Source: a phage. Taken from it: a stretch of DNA of 46,716 nucleotides. Shown piece after piece: positions 5,439 to 27,971 of the stretch (the stretch's first letter is position 1; each line of letters starts with the position of its first letter). The notes beneath the pieces were generated by a model. The model saw only the letters and a list, made by a program, of their open reading frames with translations, had not been told where the DNA came from and did no database searches. Location of the stretch: NCBI GenBank assembly GCA_018580065.1, contig GCA_018580065.1_4845.1; one strand, written 5' to 3'. The translations under genes were made by a program, and so were the position numbers.

Positions 5439-5447
5439 ATTTTAGCA
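5439..5447 (-). promoter_or_regulatory. late-type extended -10 promoter (TGCTAAAAT)
   Basis: Reverse complement ATGCTAAAAT, about 30 nt upstream of the ATG at 5408. Confidence 0.4.
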
Positions 5448-5455
5448 TATTCCTG

Positions 5456-5499
5456 TTGACGTAGATTGATGGTGTGTTTATAGTTAGTGACGTAGAAAC
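5456..5499 (+). promoter_or_regulatory. sigma70-like promoter TTGACG-17-TATAGT with two TGACGTAGA motifs
   Basis: TTGACG 5456-5461, TATAGT 5479-5484. Motif copies at 5457-5467 and 5488-5498, the second just downstream of the -10. Confidence 0.6.
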
Positions 5500-13750: not shown

Positions 13751-13814
13751 CTTTTACGTTGTGGTACAATCTACGTCAATAAGTATTGACTATGTGACGT
13801 AGAAACGTCAAGAT
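13751..13814. promoter_or_regulatory. divergent promoter pair with TGACGTAGA motifs
   Basis: Minus strand: TTGACG (13779..13774)-17-TAAAAG. Plus strand: TTGACT 13786-13791-17-CAAGAT. Motif copies at 13768-13778 (minus) and 13795-13805 (plus). Confidence 0.5.
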
Positions 13815-15048: not shown

Positions 15049-15053
15049 ACACA

Positions 15054-15076
15054 AGCCCCTTCACGGGGCTTTTTTA
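15054..15076. terminator. rho-independent terminator between convergent operons
   Basis: Stem GCCCC/GGGGC, loop TTCAC, T6 run. Confidence 0.8.
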
Positions 15077-15319
15077 TTGGAAGTTGTCACGATACCATCC
15101 CTGCCAATCGTAAATAGTCATCTTCCTTTTGGTAGCGCACTCCGTATTCTGGTTTTCTATAACAATGCTCTCATCGCTGTTTTTCGGTGCCACTTTCGAC
15201 AATTCGCACACCTCCCCCAACATTTCTGCTGACGGCTGAGTCTGCGTTGAGAGCTGATTGGCGCAACCGGATATAGTCATCATCAAAAGTGCAAACGGTA
15301 CGGTTCTGGTCGGAGACAT
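15074..15319 (-). CDS. o-spanin (Rz1-like outer membrane lipoprotein), overlapped architecture
   Basis: Lipobox LMMTISG-C after a hydrophobic leader. Starts inside the i-spanin gene in another frame and extends beyond it. Confidence 0.7.
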   Translation of the reverse strand: MSPTRTVPFALLMMTISGCANQLSTQTQPSAEMLGEVCELSKVAPKNSDESIVIENQNTECATKRKMTIYDWQGWYRDNFQ

Positions 15320-15560
15320 ATTTCACCACATCGCGATAAATGGTTTTGTATTTAGTTTCGGTCACCACGCGCACCTGTTGGGATTGCGCGGTTGACTTTG
15401 CCTGTTTGTTTTCTGCGTTCTGTTTGCGCTTGGCGGCATCAAGATTGACCTTATCACTATGAGCATACCATCCTTTCAGGTAGCCAGCGCCAAATAATAG
15501 CGAACCAATAGCAATGCCGGTCAATAGCAGAATTATAATTAATTTAACTTTTACCATCAT
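15171..15560 (-). CDS. i-spanin (Rz-like)
   Basis: N-terminal TM (LIIILLLTGIAIGSLLFGAG), then a charged coiled-coil periplasmic domain. Position after the holin. Confidence 0.75.
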   Translation of the reverse strand: MMVKVKLIIILLLTGIAIGSLLFGAGYLKGWYAHSDKVNLDAAKRKQNAENKQAKSTAQSQQVRVVTETKYKTIYRDVVKYVSDQNRTVCTFDDDYIRLRQSALNADSAVSRNVGGGVRIVESGTEKQR

Positions 15561-15780
15561 TGCGCAGCCTCCGGTTTTCCTTCCTCATGCCGTGCATCTT
15601 GCCGAGAATACCAACCAGCATGATTGAATAGCTCACACCTTTGACCACGATTGGCGGCAGCGCTGCTTTCAGGTCGTCCGGCATCATTACCCACACATGC
15701 ATCATTGCGTCAGGCCATAGTTGCAACAGTGAGCAGAACGAAATCCACGCGCCGAGCAGCCAGTTGCTTAGCTTTTTCAT
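15544..15780 (-). CDS. holin (two TM, class II-like)
   Basis: 78 aa, two hydrophobic segments, highly charged C-terminus RKENRRLRNDGKS. Adjacent to the endolysin. Confidence 0.75.
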   Translation of the reverse strand: MKKLSNWLLGAWISFCSLLQLWPDAMMHVWVMMPDDLKAALPPIVVKGVSYSIMLVGILGKMHGMRKENRRLRNDGKS

Positions 15781-16241
15781 GTCACAGCCCCGCCAGCATC
15801 CTTGTATACCTGAATCAGCTTATCCAGTTTCTGCTCATGCTGACCATAGCCAGCACCCGGCAATGAAGCCCAGCGGGAACGGCATTTATGGATGGCATCA
15901 GCAATGCGACCAGCCTCGATGTCGGTAGTGGCCTTGCATTCACGGATTAGCTGCATTGCAATGGCATCCTGTGATGCAGGAGAGAAGTCAGGCAGGCGCA
16001 GTTGCTTTTTGTATGCATCATAAAACTTAGCCAGCACCTGATAGCGCCCGGCGGCGGTGGATTTGATGCCCAGCCTAGGCAGACTAATCAGCTTGCGCGG
16101 GTGATCGGAATAGTCAGTAAACAGTGAGCCGCCAACGATCACATCATAACCATGATTATTGGTTTTCTGTCGCCCGTTATCAGTCCCCTCGCTGTACGCC
16201 AGCATATCCAGAAACGCCTTCATGTTTTTGCTAATAGCCAT
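15777..16241 (-). CDS. endolysin, lambda R-like lytic transglycosylase
   Basis: KAFLDMLAYSEGTDNGRQKTNNHGYDVIVGG.LFTDYSDHPR...AGRYQ...WASLPGAGYGQ closely parallels phage lambda R. Confidence 0.9.
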   Translation of the reverse strand: MAISKNMKAFLDMLAYSEGTDNGRQKTNNHGYDVIVGGSLFTDYSDHPRKLISLPRLGIKSTAAGRYQVLAKFYDAYKKQLRLPDFSPASQDAIAMQLIRECKATTDIEAGRIADAIHKCRSRWASLPGAGYGQHEQKLDKLIQVYKDAGGAVT

Positions 16242-16509
16242 ACCAGTAAACCTCTTTTTCAGCTTTGCGTTTTGCCTTATCACCAGTCTTCTCGCACCAC
16301 ACGATGAAATGCGCAACAGCACATGAGAAGCAGCGGAGATTGTGCTTCTTCAGAAGCGTTGATTTACGGAACACGTCAATGCCAATGTCAGTAGCAAGGC
16401 TCGTCAGCGCGTCGAACTGATTCTGTGTCGTCTTGGTAGTGATATAGGGCGATATATCTACGGCATCGGTGATTCCAAGGGTCTCTATGCCGCGTTGCGA
16501 TAGTTTCAT
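16231..16509 (-). CDS. GH24 (T4/P22-type) lysozyme-like remnant lacking the catalytic core
   Basis: QNQFDALTSLATDIGIDVFRKSTLLKK matches the GH24 helix region. The N-terminal E...D...T(IGYGH) catalytic segment is absent. 92 aa versus about 150 in intact enzymes. AGGAGG RBS retained. Confidence 0.55.
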   Translation of the reverse strand: MKLSQRGIETLGITDAVDISPYITTKTTQNQFDALTSLATDIGIDVFRKSTLLKKHNLRCFSCAVAHFIVWCEKTGDKAKRKAEKEVYWYGY

Positions 16510-16535
16510 CCTGCCTCCTGCTCAAATAATAACTA

Positions 16536-16544
16536 ATTCTATCA
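16536..16544 (-). promoter_or_regulatory. late-type extended -10 promoter (TGATAGAAT)
   Basis: Reverse complement GTGATAGAAT, about 27 nt upstream of the lysis cassette ATG (16509). Confidence 0.45.
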
Positions 16545-16553
16545 CAATGGCTA

Positions 16554-16593
16554 TTGACGTAGATTGAGCGGTGGTGCATAGTATCTACATCAA
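16554..16593 (+). promoter_or_regulatory. sigma70-like promoter TTGACG-17-CATAGT flanked by inverted motif copies
   Basis: TTGACGTAGAT (16554-16564) and ATCTACATCAA (16583-16593) form an inverted repeat bracketing the -10. Confidence 0.55.
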
Positions 16594-16998: not shown

Positions 16999-17277
16999 AT
17001 GACAAAACGCGAATTACACCAATTATTTAACAAATGGCTTGATTCTGTTGGTTTTGGCGACATGAATGATAGAGAGAAGGACTTGCTTTGGTTTGGGTTT
17101 TCTGTTGGATATTGCCACGACAATAACAAGACCATGCTCGCAGCACTCCAGCAGCTTCTGGAAATCTACGACGACCATTCAGGAAAAGCCTGGACAACAT
17201 CAAGCAAGCGTCGTGCTCTGGATAATGCGCGCGATGCGGTTAATAAAGCGCTGGGGGAGCGCAATGAAACAATGTGA
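16999..17277 (+). CDS. hypothetical protein
   Basis: 92 aa from MTKRELHQLF. GAGGT RBS. Confidence 0.65.
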   Translation: MTKRELHQLFNKWLDSVGFGDMNDREKDLLWFGFSVGYCHDNNKTMLAALQQLLEIYDDHSGKAWTTSSKRRALDNARDAVNKALGERNETM

Positions 17278-17749
17278 TCTTTTCCGTGTTCTTAGTTATA
17301 ACCCTGAATCTGGTGAATTCACGTGGATTAAATCAAGAAGACATGGGTTTAGCGGTCGAAAGGCTGGGTCGGTAAATGGGAAAGGGTACATACAGATCTG
17401 CATTGATGGAAAGCTTTATCTTGCGCACAGGCTTGCTCTTCTATACGTGACAGGAGAGATGCCAAAGGAGGTGGATCATATTAACAGGGTGAGAGATGAC
17501 AATAGATTATGCAACTTAAGGCCATGCACTTCATCTGAAAATAAGCACAACAAGGATATCACATCCAGAAACAAAACAGGGATGAAGGGCGTCAGCTGGT
17601 ATCCTGCCGGAAATTCATGGCGAGTAAGGATATGCGTAAATAAAACACAGATTCATCTGGGCTACTACGAAGACATTGAGCTGGCAGAGCTTGTGTCGCA
17701 AGAGGCGAGAATTAAATACGCAGGAGATTTTAATTATGAAGCTTATTGA
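17264..17749 (+). CDS. HNH homing endonuclease (HNH_3 plus AP2-like domain)
   Basis: LAHRLALLYVTGEMPKEVDHINRVRDDNRLCNLR...N motif plus GVSWY...WRVRI AP2-like segment. Paralog of 6790-7281. Confidence 0.85.
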   Translation: MKQCDLFRVLSYNPESGEFTWIKSRRHGFSGRKAGSVNGKGYIQICIDGKLYLAHRLALLYVTGEMPKEVDHINRVRDDNRLCNLRPCTSSENKHNKDITSRNKTGMKGVSWYPAGNSWRVRICVNKTQIHLGYYEDIELAELVSQEARIKYAGDFNYEAY

Positions 17750-23529: not shown

Positions 23530-23636
23530 TGATGTAGATTATACTATGCGCTCGGTGTAGATTGGTCAAGTGTGGTGATGCAGATTTATCAACAACAATA
23601 ATAAATGTTGACGTAGATATGTTGGTGACGTAGAAT
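23530..23636. promoter_or_regulatory. divergent control region with five direct copies of the TGAYGTAGAWW motif
   Basis: Copies at 23530, 23553, 23576, 23609 and 23626. Leftward TTGACC-17-TAGTAT (23569..23541) and rightward TTGACG-17-TAGAAT (23608-23636). Confidence 0.6.
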
Positions 23637-27942: not shown

Positions 27943-27971
27943 AATCTACATCAGTTGTGATTCTACGTCAA
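27943..27971 (-). promoter_or_regulatory. sigma70-like promoter TTGACG-17-TAGATT (minus strand) with two motif copies
   Basis: Minus strand: TTGACGTAGAATCACAACTGATGTAGATT. Motif copies at 27960-27970 and 27943-27953. Confidence 0.6.

Follow-up and report, generated by a model that had tools for sequence, protein, structure and literature searches.

The phage lysozymes of family GH24, among them T4 gpe, P22 gp19 and phage 21 R (PF00959), have a two-lobe fold with a cleft between the lobes and a catalytic Glu-x8-Asp/Cys-x5-Thr arrangement in the N-terminal lobe. The isolated C-terminal subdomain of T4 lysozyme, consisting of the N-terminal helix and the C-terminal helices, folds autonomously. 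Here a short gene is described from a stretch of phage DNA of 46,716 nucleotides (NCBI GenBank assembly GCA_018580065.1, contig GCA_018580065.1_4845.1), which as a whole is called the window. Its product is similar to the GH24 lysozymes in sequence and fold over the C-lobe and the first helix, but lacks the 50-residue N-lobe with the Glu/Asp/Thr residues as well as the GKxxxGL loop, and its gene always lies beside that of another endolysin. The architecture is that of the T4 subdomain, with the difference that the latter is an engineered fragment and the former is encoded by a natural gene under selection. On balance, the evidence favours a non-catalytic, lysozyme-derived pseudoenzyme, an accessory lysis protein that arose from the GH24 endolysin resident at this locus.

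Endolysin-derived non-enzymes and small accessory genes at this position have been described in other settings. In mycobacteriophage Ms6, the small gene gp1 lies upstream of the endolysin gene and overlaps it, is non-essential for plaque formation and assists export of the endolysin. The short gene resembles gp1 in position, overlap, size and dispensability, without homology, and an export activity is not predicted here. The muramidase domain of SpmX from Caulobacterales, which was among the matches found (6h9d, NF051871), is a GH24 domain reused for a non-lytic purpose; it differs in being a whole two-lobe domain within a larger bacterial membrane protein, while the short protein is a C-lobe occurring as a free 10-kDa phage protein. 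TcdL, encoded in the pathogenicity locus of C. difficile, is a truncated, inactive endolysin homologue beside the phage-type holin TcdE (bioRxiv 10.1101/2025.09.22.677799). It shares with the short protein the truncation, the catalytic inactivity and the conservation beside a holin, but is described as a lambda-R homologue, belongs to a bacterial toxin locus and has no sequence relationship to the short protein. The gene itself is already annotated in many genomes, as endolysin or lysozyme; in the literature, no paper was found describing it as truncated, catalytically disabled, conserved or partner-independent.

The window (about 46.7 kb) is genome-sized and belongs to a virulent siphophage of the Skatevirus/Akiravirus group, with a DNA identity of 88-92% to Salmonella phages Akira, Skate and KFS-SE2, Escherichia phages Bas77-80 and others. 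The lysis operon is compact and located on the minus strand, with the short GH24-derived open reading frame (ORF) as its first gene. The two genes at the centre of this analysis are:

16231-16509, minus strand: short GH24-derived gene, 92 amino acids, 10.5 kDa, isoelectric point 9.05; N-terminal helix and C-terminal lobe of a T4-type lysozyme from which the catalytic lobe has been deleted
15777-16241, minus strand: complete lambda-R-type (GH104) lytic transglycosylase, the catalytic endolysin, 154 amino acids (3d3d/1am7, E=1.7e-61; phrog_90, E=7e-57)

The lambda-R-like protein is homologous to lambda lysozyme R (3d3d/1am7) along its whole length, with residues 3-153 aligned and the SEGT catalytic stretch included. 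Its catalytic-Glu stretch AYSEGTDNGRQKT is aligned with AWSEGTDNGRQKT, as expected for a GH104 enzyme.

The short protein matched Phage_lysozyme (PF00959) with E=2.1e-10, above the gathering score and over profile positions 55-114 of 125 only, and solved GH24 lysozymes matched over residues 19-80 (6et6 with E=1.8e-9, P22 2anv and R21 3hde). In PHROGs, a dedicated family of 95 positions (phrog_10457) carries the label 'endolysin'. Alignment with full-length GH24 proteins left two gaps, one of 50 residues right after M1-G7 and one of 5-6 residues before the Arg-rich helix 'RRR'. The large gap covers residues 8-57 of the syntenic 146-amino-acid lysozyme of Salmonella phage D10, which hold E15, D24 and T33, and is fixed by an ungapped register (I8=L58, S20=S70, T24=T74, QxQFDA=QxQFDA); the smaller gap is the loop 'GKVMNGL' of the active enzymes. 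A preliminary description, made from the letters alone, had pointed out a GH24 region (QNQFDAL...FRKSTLLKK), a lysozyme-like N-terminus (LSQRGIETL) and the absence of the catalytic Glu/Asp/Thr region, and all three are borne out by these matches and alignments; the protein begins with MKLSQRG.

An AlphaFold2 model of the 92 residues (mean predicted local distance difference test score, pLDDT, of 93.5; predicted template modelling score, pTM, of 0.87) consists of six helices, with no beta-sheet lobe. All significant Foldseek matches were GH24 lysozymes, with query template modelling scores (TM-scores) of 0.70-0.82 and with the first helix and the C-lobe both covered. Based on the model and these matches, the short protein corresponds to the C-terminal lobe plus the N-terminal helix of a T4-type lysozyme; the two-lobe fold with its cleft is not formed, and the block homologous to the one with the catalytic Glu, Asp/Cys and Thr is deleted. 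The high pLDDT fits with the autonomous folding of the T4 subdomain. A search of the whole window with the lysozymes of D10 and Klebsiella phage 6991 found no N-lobe elsewhere (best E=0.7), and a split enzyme was rejected. The maximal Kyte-Doolittle mean over 19 residues was 0.82, versus 1.73 for the holin, and there is no transmembrane segment; the protein is a soluble, basic domain, helical in the model. With no membrane segment and only lysozyme families found in Pfam, PHROGs and NCBIfam, the protein does not resemble an antiholin or a known lysis regulator, a result that leaves room for a new soluble regulator.

In D10 (Skatevirus), Klebsiella phage 6991 and loci L041-43, one intact GH24 gene encoding 144-149 amino acids occupies the same spot and is followed directly by holin and spanins, with no lambda-R-like gene. 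When the window is compared with D10, the DNA is homologous in the upstream region and as far as nucleotide 26 of the ORF (88.6%); the homology is then lost and picks up again where the holin gene begins, at its first base (94%). The first 21 nt (seven codons) of the short ORF are identical to those of the D10 GH24 gene. The syntenic GH24 proteins are also the closest full-length relatives, with 46-56% identity over the shared part versus 33-44% for other GH24 proteins, and have the clade-specific motif K-H-N-x2-C-x2-C in common with the short protein. The shared flanks, the identical first codons, the synteny of the closest relatives and the common motif make the resident endolysin gene of the locus the ancestor of the short gene.

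Among 79 IMG/VR loci recovered via the holin, 36 contained the short GH24 gene with lambda-R and 35 an intact GH24 gene alone. The rest comprised three with an unrelated PF11860 muramidase after a membrane protein, one with GH108 alone and four that were remote or partial. The holin of the window is 97% identical to that of D10, though D10 carries the intact GH24 gene instead. By these comparisons the two common layouts appear as exchangeable modules between conserved flanks. The preliminary description had seen in the locus a snapshot of endolysin replacement by recombination. The origin by module exchange stands, given the synteny with D10 and the breaks in DNA homology; the notion of a snapshot is refuted by the lineages, the partner swaps and the selection described below.

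Three deep lineages of the short protein were distinguished, types A, B and C, with 54-60% identity; the window carries type A. Type B (93 amino acids) is 54-60% identical to type A, shares both deletions as well as the derived motifs 'VDIS', 'TSLAT-IGI[DE]-F' and the 'Y-x-Y-G-Y' tail, and adjoins lambda-R and holin genes 94-97% identical to those of the window. Alleles A and B thus circulate among cassettes that are otherwise about 95% identical. Type C (P0055, P0204-6) is found in syntenic contigs of 45-48 kb before a 171-amino-acid GH108+PG_binding_3 endolysin in place of lambda-R (loci L065, L068-L071); its members came from a protein database and a metagenome scan, and none were found in IMG/VR. 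Other combinations occur as well. A type-C gene is followed by a lambda-R-like gene in L154, and a type-B-like gene in L152 by a second, full-length GH24 gene encoding a hydrophobic N-terminus. In this phage group the short ORF was always found with a bona fide endolysin and never alone.

One type-C member, P0207 (L070), is full-length (147 amino acids) and located before GH108. Its catalytic Glu is replaced by Tyr and its Thr by Arg; the loop deletion and the YYYGY tail are already present. In the short forms of type C the N-lobe is missing in two ways, giving proteins of 98 and of 90 amino acids, the latter also without the first helix. The N-lobe was probably removed more than once.

In all 42 loci the short ORF was intact: it measured 279 or 282 nt, began with ATG after a G-rich Shine-Dalgarno sequence and overlapped the gene that follows. 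Selection was estimated by the Nei-Gojobori method on 36 type-A loci, with bootstrap 95% confidence intervals given in brackets. For the short gene, the ratio of nonsynonymous to synonymous substitution rates (dN/dS) was 0.11 and the pooled ratio of the corresponding proportions (pN/pS) 0.137 (0.079-0.213), similar to the constraint on the holin gene (dN/dS 0.13, pN/pS 0.185 (0.122-0.263)). The lambda-R-like gene gave 0.035 and 0.048 (0.030-0.071), and the C-lobe of active GH24 enzymes a pN/pS of 0.059. Without the last 33 nt, the pN/pS of the short gene was 0.116. Divided by codons, it was 0.14 for 13-28, 0.08 for 29-58 and 0.12 for 59-80, with the strongest constraint in codons 81-92 (0.047); codons 1-12 alone were relaxed (0.58). 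The synonymous divergence of the short gene is high (dS 0.37), which indicates that selection acts on the protein and argues against an overlapping gene in another frame as the source of the substitution pattern. The signs of a pseudogene, a dN/dS near 1 and frameshifts or stops in relatives, were not seen.

GenBank holds about 140 phages of several genera with the short ORF and 143 records with the R-like gene at at least 80% identity; these roughly equal numbers were counted in favour of a pseudoenzyme. Two apparent natural cases of compensated frameshifts, P0034 (L162) and P0029 (L163), which would have pointed to the frame as all that counts, were rejected as artefacts, with neighbouring genes fragmented as in indel-rich assemblies. 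Both loci are ENA contigs (ERZ1948697/ERZ1948695), and caution is needed when mining the family from those assemblies.

A search of 1.84 billion proteins yielded further short GH24 matches, which were set aside. P0078 (L156, 2501-2797) is a P22-gp19-like lysozyme of 98 amino acids whose catalytic lobe has been lost through a closely similar internal deletion. It is known from a single contig, sits alone between holin and Rz in a lambdoid prophage-type cassette, and looks like a true relic, a contrast case to the short gene. P0131 is a frameshift-split lysozyme gene, the context of P0099 was uninformative, and the remaining matches were start-codon or contig-edge artefacts.

Since the short gene survives the partner swaps under purifying selection, it has a function of its own. 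The term 'relic' used in the preliminary description is contradicted by the 42 intact ORFs, the pooled pN/pS, the depth of the lineages and the persistence through exchange of the enzyme, and its fallback, a dead fragment kept for another role, for which it named wall binding and lysis regulation as candidates, is the better reading. It had further named a refuting observation, a conserved short ORF in relatives unrelated to lysozymes. Relatives do share a conserved short ORF, but this ORF is related to lysozymes.

The following course of events would account for the locus most economically. A foreign endolysin gene would have been placed directly downstream of the resident GH24 gene in an ancestor. 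The resident would then have lost catalysis, by loss of the active-site loop, substitution of catalytic residues and later deletion of the catalytic lobe, and the catalytic partner would have been exchanged afterwards. What preserved the C-lobe would be an additional task, apart from catalysis, that endolysins of foreign origin do not bring along. The short protein would be translated from one promoter-proximal message together with endolysin, holin and spanins, in translational coupling with the endolysin, and would improve the timing or efficiency of lysis without being required. This series, running from active enzyme through full-length protein with dead residues to N-terminally truncated and internally deleted forms, would be a natural passage from enzyme to pseudoenzyme.

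We infer that the task retained is part of lysis and that the full-length GH24 protein resident at the locus carries it out within one protein, which would explain the presence of the short gene exactly when a foreign enzyme does the cutting. A more specific version, put forward tentatively, is that the C-lobe of GH24 proteins in this clade carries a second function in lysis control, such as holin triggering or endolysin release, possibly via the H-x3-C-x2-C and Y-x-Y-G-Y motifs. This function would need a separate supply wherever the resident endolysin gives way to a foreign one, whether GH104, GH108 or another GH24. Neither the short lineages nor the active clade resident at the locus show any variation at H56, C60 and C63, residues that other GH24 proteins lack; together with the aromatic Y-x-Y-G-Y tail these three are candidate determinants of the retained function. 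Peptidoglycan binding is less likely, because the cleft residues have degenerated.

The signals around the short gene consist of:

16536-16563, minus strand: probable lysis-operon promoter, TCTACGTCAA-N9-TGaTAGAAT, extended -10-like, a conserved upstream element
16514-16519, minus strand: Shine-Dalgarno sequence AGGAGG belonging to the short ORF, whose ATG at 16509 follows after 4 nt
16231-16241, minus strand: overlap of 11 nt between the stop of the short ORF (TAG, 16233-16231) and the start of the endolysin gene (ATG, 16241-16239)

The composite TCTACGTCAA-N9/10-TGnTAnAAT occurs twice in the window (16536-16563 and 5439-5465, both on the minus strand) versus 0 expected, and the 12-mer core AATCTACGTCAA 17 times versus 3.8 expected, with sites including 13768-13779 (plus strand), 23608-23619 (minus strand) and 27960-27971 (plus strand). 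D10, Klebsiella phage 6991, L038 and L062 have the same element ahead of their GH24 or pseudo-GH24 gene, and L141 has it immediately before GH108; in type-C loci, for which 60 nt were inspected, only the extended -10-like part is visible. It is kept upstream of the lysis cassette in distant relatives, regardless of the first gene. A generic sigma-70 scan upstream of the short ORF gave nothing above chance, and the extended -10-like element was identified through comparison of loci. Judged by its conservation, the element is probably the promoter of the lysis operon and a member of a class of phage promoters or regulator sites.

The perfect AGGAGG ribosome-binding site and the overlap of 11 nt with a complete lambda R-like gene had both been read correctly in the preliminary description. 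A G-rich Shine-Dalgarno sequence (AGGAGG or one-base variants such as GGGAGG, AGGGGG and CGGAGG) is found at the same distance in the 42 loci, and the ribosome-binding site of the endolysin gene, AAGAGG, is located inside the short ORF, in codons 84-86. The length of the overlap differs between the lineages, with 11 nt for type A, 14 nt for type B and 4 nt for type C. From this arrangement, the short ORF appears to be translationally coupled to the endolysin gene and co-expressed with it.

No stop codon interrupts the endolysin frame over the 36 codons before its ATG, a stretch that lies within the short gene (16242-16349 of the window, minus strand). In type B this opening extends over 54 or 68 codons, and two loci have stops 7 and 10 codons upstream. 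A programmed frameshift into the endolysin frame is unsupported, given these two loci, a chance probability of about 0.04-0.18 for the opening and no slippery site seen; the open frame is probably due to chance.

The dispensability of the gene was assessed from GenBank records of 69 genomes of viable CRISPR-reduced mutants of Skatevirus seszw (PMC9825161), without a dedicated experiment. All 69 keep the 279 nt at at least 99.6% identity, down to a genome of 36 kb. Two viable CiPGr mutants, seszw_30L (L161) and seszw_100L (L160), have a deletion of 1 nt at codon 57 of the homologue; owing to this frameshift, residues 57-92 are exchanged for other sequence and residues 1-56 become joined to the endolysin through the open upstream R frame. 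The viability of 30L and 100L indicates that the intact short protein is not needed for plaque formation in the laboratory, so that it does not behave as an endolysin required for lysis; the L141 cassette, in which GH108 lies directly behind the conserved upstream element with no short gene, agrees with this. Dispensability for plaque formation is usual for lysis-timing accessories. In seszw_100L (MZ375313.1, 901-1586), a further deletion of 46 nt within the lambda-R-like gene truncates R after residue 44; its lysis could reflect fragment complementation, another muralytic protein or an assembly problem.

A number of observations weigh against an accessory pseudoenzyme. The same dispensability is also compatible with no function at all, and a gene that can be lost, as in L141 or in 30L and 100L, may bring only a small or conditional benefit. 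The 67 of 69 seszw mutants that keep the gene are uninformative unless the CRISPR library targeted it. Some of the constraint comes from the embedded ribosome-binding site and the downstream start, as the low pN/pS of codons 81-92 suggests. In type A, the protein of the window included, a literal E9-x8-D18-x5-T24 string is present in 35 of 36 loci, and the killing of about 1 log reported for the homologue of phage swi2 would contradict a non-catalytic protein if it is muralytic in nature. An obligate partnership with the DUF7940 holin, finally, is unlikely, being contradicted by L137-139, in which this holin occurs with a PF11860 muramidase and a membrane protein and with no GH24-like gene. 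The first cassette gene of these three loci (about 1530-2504) encodes 129-131 amino acids with one hydrophobic segment, a charged tail and no Pfam match, and its product may be another lysis accessory in the same 'first gene' slot.

Of the other explanations, an unlikely one that keeps some force is that the ORF is a leader only, its frame being kept to deliver ribosomes to the overlapping endolysin start, with a peptide that has no function. The stop/start overlap of 11, 14 or 4 nt and the embedded AAGAGG/GAGAGG are kept in every locus, the strongest constraint falls on codons 81-92, 30L is viable with a frameshift that leads translation into the R frame, and GH108 in L141 has its own ribosome-binding site directly behind the promoter. 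Coupling needs an open frame and not a particular sequence, yet codons 13-80 have a pN/pS of 0.08-0.14 at a dS of about 0.4. The fold-determining residues shared with active GH24 enzymes are invariant across the 54-60%-identical lineages, the product is predicted to fold with high confidence, and the Y-x-Y-G-Y tail is kept in type C, where the start codon of the next gene does not overlap it.

It is likewise improbable that the C-lobe was recruited outside lysis, for counter-defence, as a decoy or for redox or metal sensing via H-x3-C-x2-C, and merely rides in the lysis operon. The invariance of H56, C60 and C63 would suit such a role. In the model, C60 lies just ahead of helix 61-75 and C63 in the first turn of that helix, a predicted geometry typical of redox-active or metal-binding CxxC sites. 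The divergent alleles A and B among nearly identical cassettes form a pattern also seen in arms-race genes, although ordinary mosaic recombination explains this mixing equally well. The gene is always found inside the lysis operon, overlapping the endolysin gene, and no matches to defence or anti-defence families were obtained, the PADLOC library not having been scanned.

The reading found in the annotations of GenBank and PHROGs, that the operon encodes two active endolysins, the short protein being a minimal muramidase, is quite improbable. Its basis is the PF00959 and PHROGs matches, the record of phage Skate ('endolysin/glycosidase, has Ex5Dx8T motif'), the literal string mentioned above, next to which type A also holds E9-x5-D15-x8-T24, and an assay on phage swi2, the cassette of which is 90% identical to that of the window. 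Expressed as a trigger-factor fusion of 52 kDa, the swi2 homologue, 'lysin2', gave killing of about 1 log; the effect was equally small for the lambda-R-like 'lysin1', whether or not EDTA was present, and the study included no peptidoglycan assay (PMC8185280); these data are inconclusive. The whole N-terminal lobe, one wall of the GH24 cleft, is missing. By the register TLG...AVD...T...QNQFDAL, as shown by IETLGITDAVDISPYITT versus IKTLGKYESAVDSFVTA of P0041, E9, D18 and T24 occupy the non-catalytic positions D59, G68 and T74 of D10 in the inter-lobe helix (helix C). The E-x8-D-x5-T string is absent from types B and C, in which the N-terminal Glu, D15 and T24 are not conserved, and every short lineage has another residue in place of the Asn in the conserved [FY]-N-[IV]-G segment and has lost the GKxxxGL loop. 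The register, the absence from B and C and the loss of Asn and loop mark the type-A string as a coincidence. With the substituted Glu and Thr of the full-length P0207 and the constant company of a bona fide endolysin added, the short protein is probably a non-catalytic pseudoenzyme as judged from its sequence.

A decaying pseudogene left by a recent endolysin replacement, which could appeal to the deleted catalytic region, to the intact GH24 gene at the same site in sister phages and to genuine relics of this type elsewhere (P0078, P0131), is already contradicted by the intact ORF in 42 of 42 loci, a pN/pS of 0.14 with an upper bound of 0.21, three deep lineages, about 140 carrier phages of several genera and retention through partner swaps, and can hardly be upheld.

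Downstream of the endolysin gene, the operon is completed by the following features:

15544-15780, minus strand: class II holin, DUF7940, 78 amino acids (PF25612, E=1e-9; phrog_13249, E=3e-51)
15171-15560, minus strand: i-spanin, Rz-like, 129 amino acids (phrog_2536, E=4e-31)
15074-15319, minus strand: embedded o-spanin, an Rz1-like lipoprotein with lipobox ISGC (phrog_5672, E=1.9e-5)
15053-15071, no strand assigned: terminator-like hairpin ending the operon, stem of 7 pairs, T-run on the plus strand

The Skate record has an annotated terminator at the place equivalent to this hairpin. The spanin module is also mosaic. The 129-amino-acid i-spanin of the window (phrog_2536) has more than 90% identity only in L032 and L033 and about 50% in L041-43, and Skate, Akira, D10 and most others encode there, behind a near-identical holin, a spanin of 163-165 amino acids, of the DUF2514 type where domain calls are on record (e.g. 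L062-L064). Homing-endonuclease-like genes of the HNH/AP2 type are scattered close to the lysis cassettes. One is inserted between GH108 and holin in L141 (1840-2499), and in the window an endonuclease-like ORF is located at 17066-17749 on the plus strand, just past the divergent genes, with HNH_3 matches at equivalent places. Such genes may drive the exchange of endolysin modules.

With the short gene regarded as encoding an accessory pseudoenzyme, the annotation of about 140 deposited phage genomes, one PHROG family and at least one experimental paper, all of which treat the gene as a second endolysin, is corrected. Several of the carrier phages have been proposed for biocontrol of Salmonella or E. 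coli, and the result is a warning against cloning the gene as an enzybiotic. If its role in lysis control is true, the protein would be a soluble regulator derived from an endolysin, a new class to be added to the scheme of holin, endolysin and spanin.

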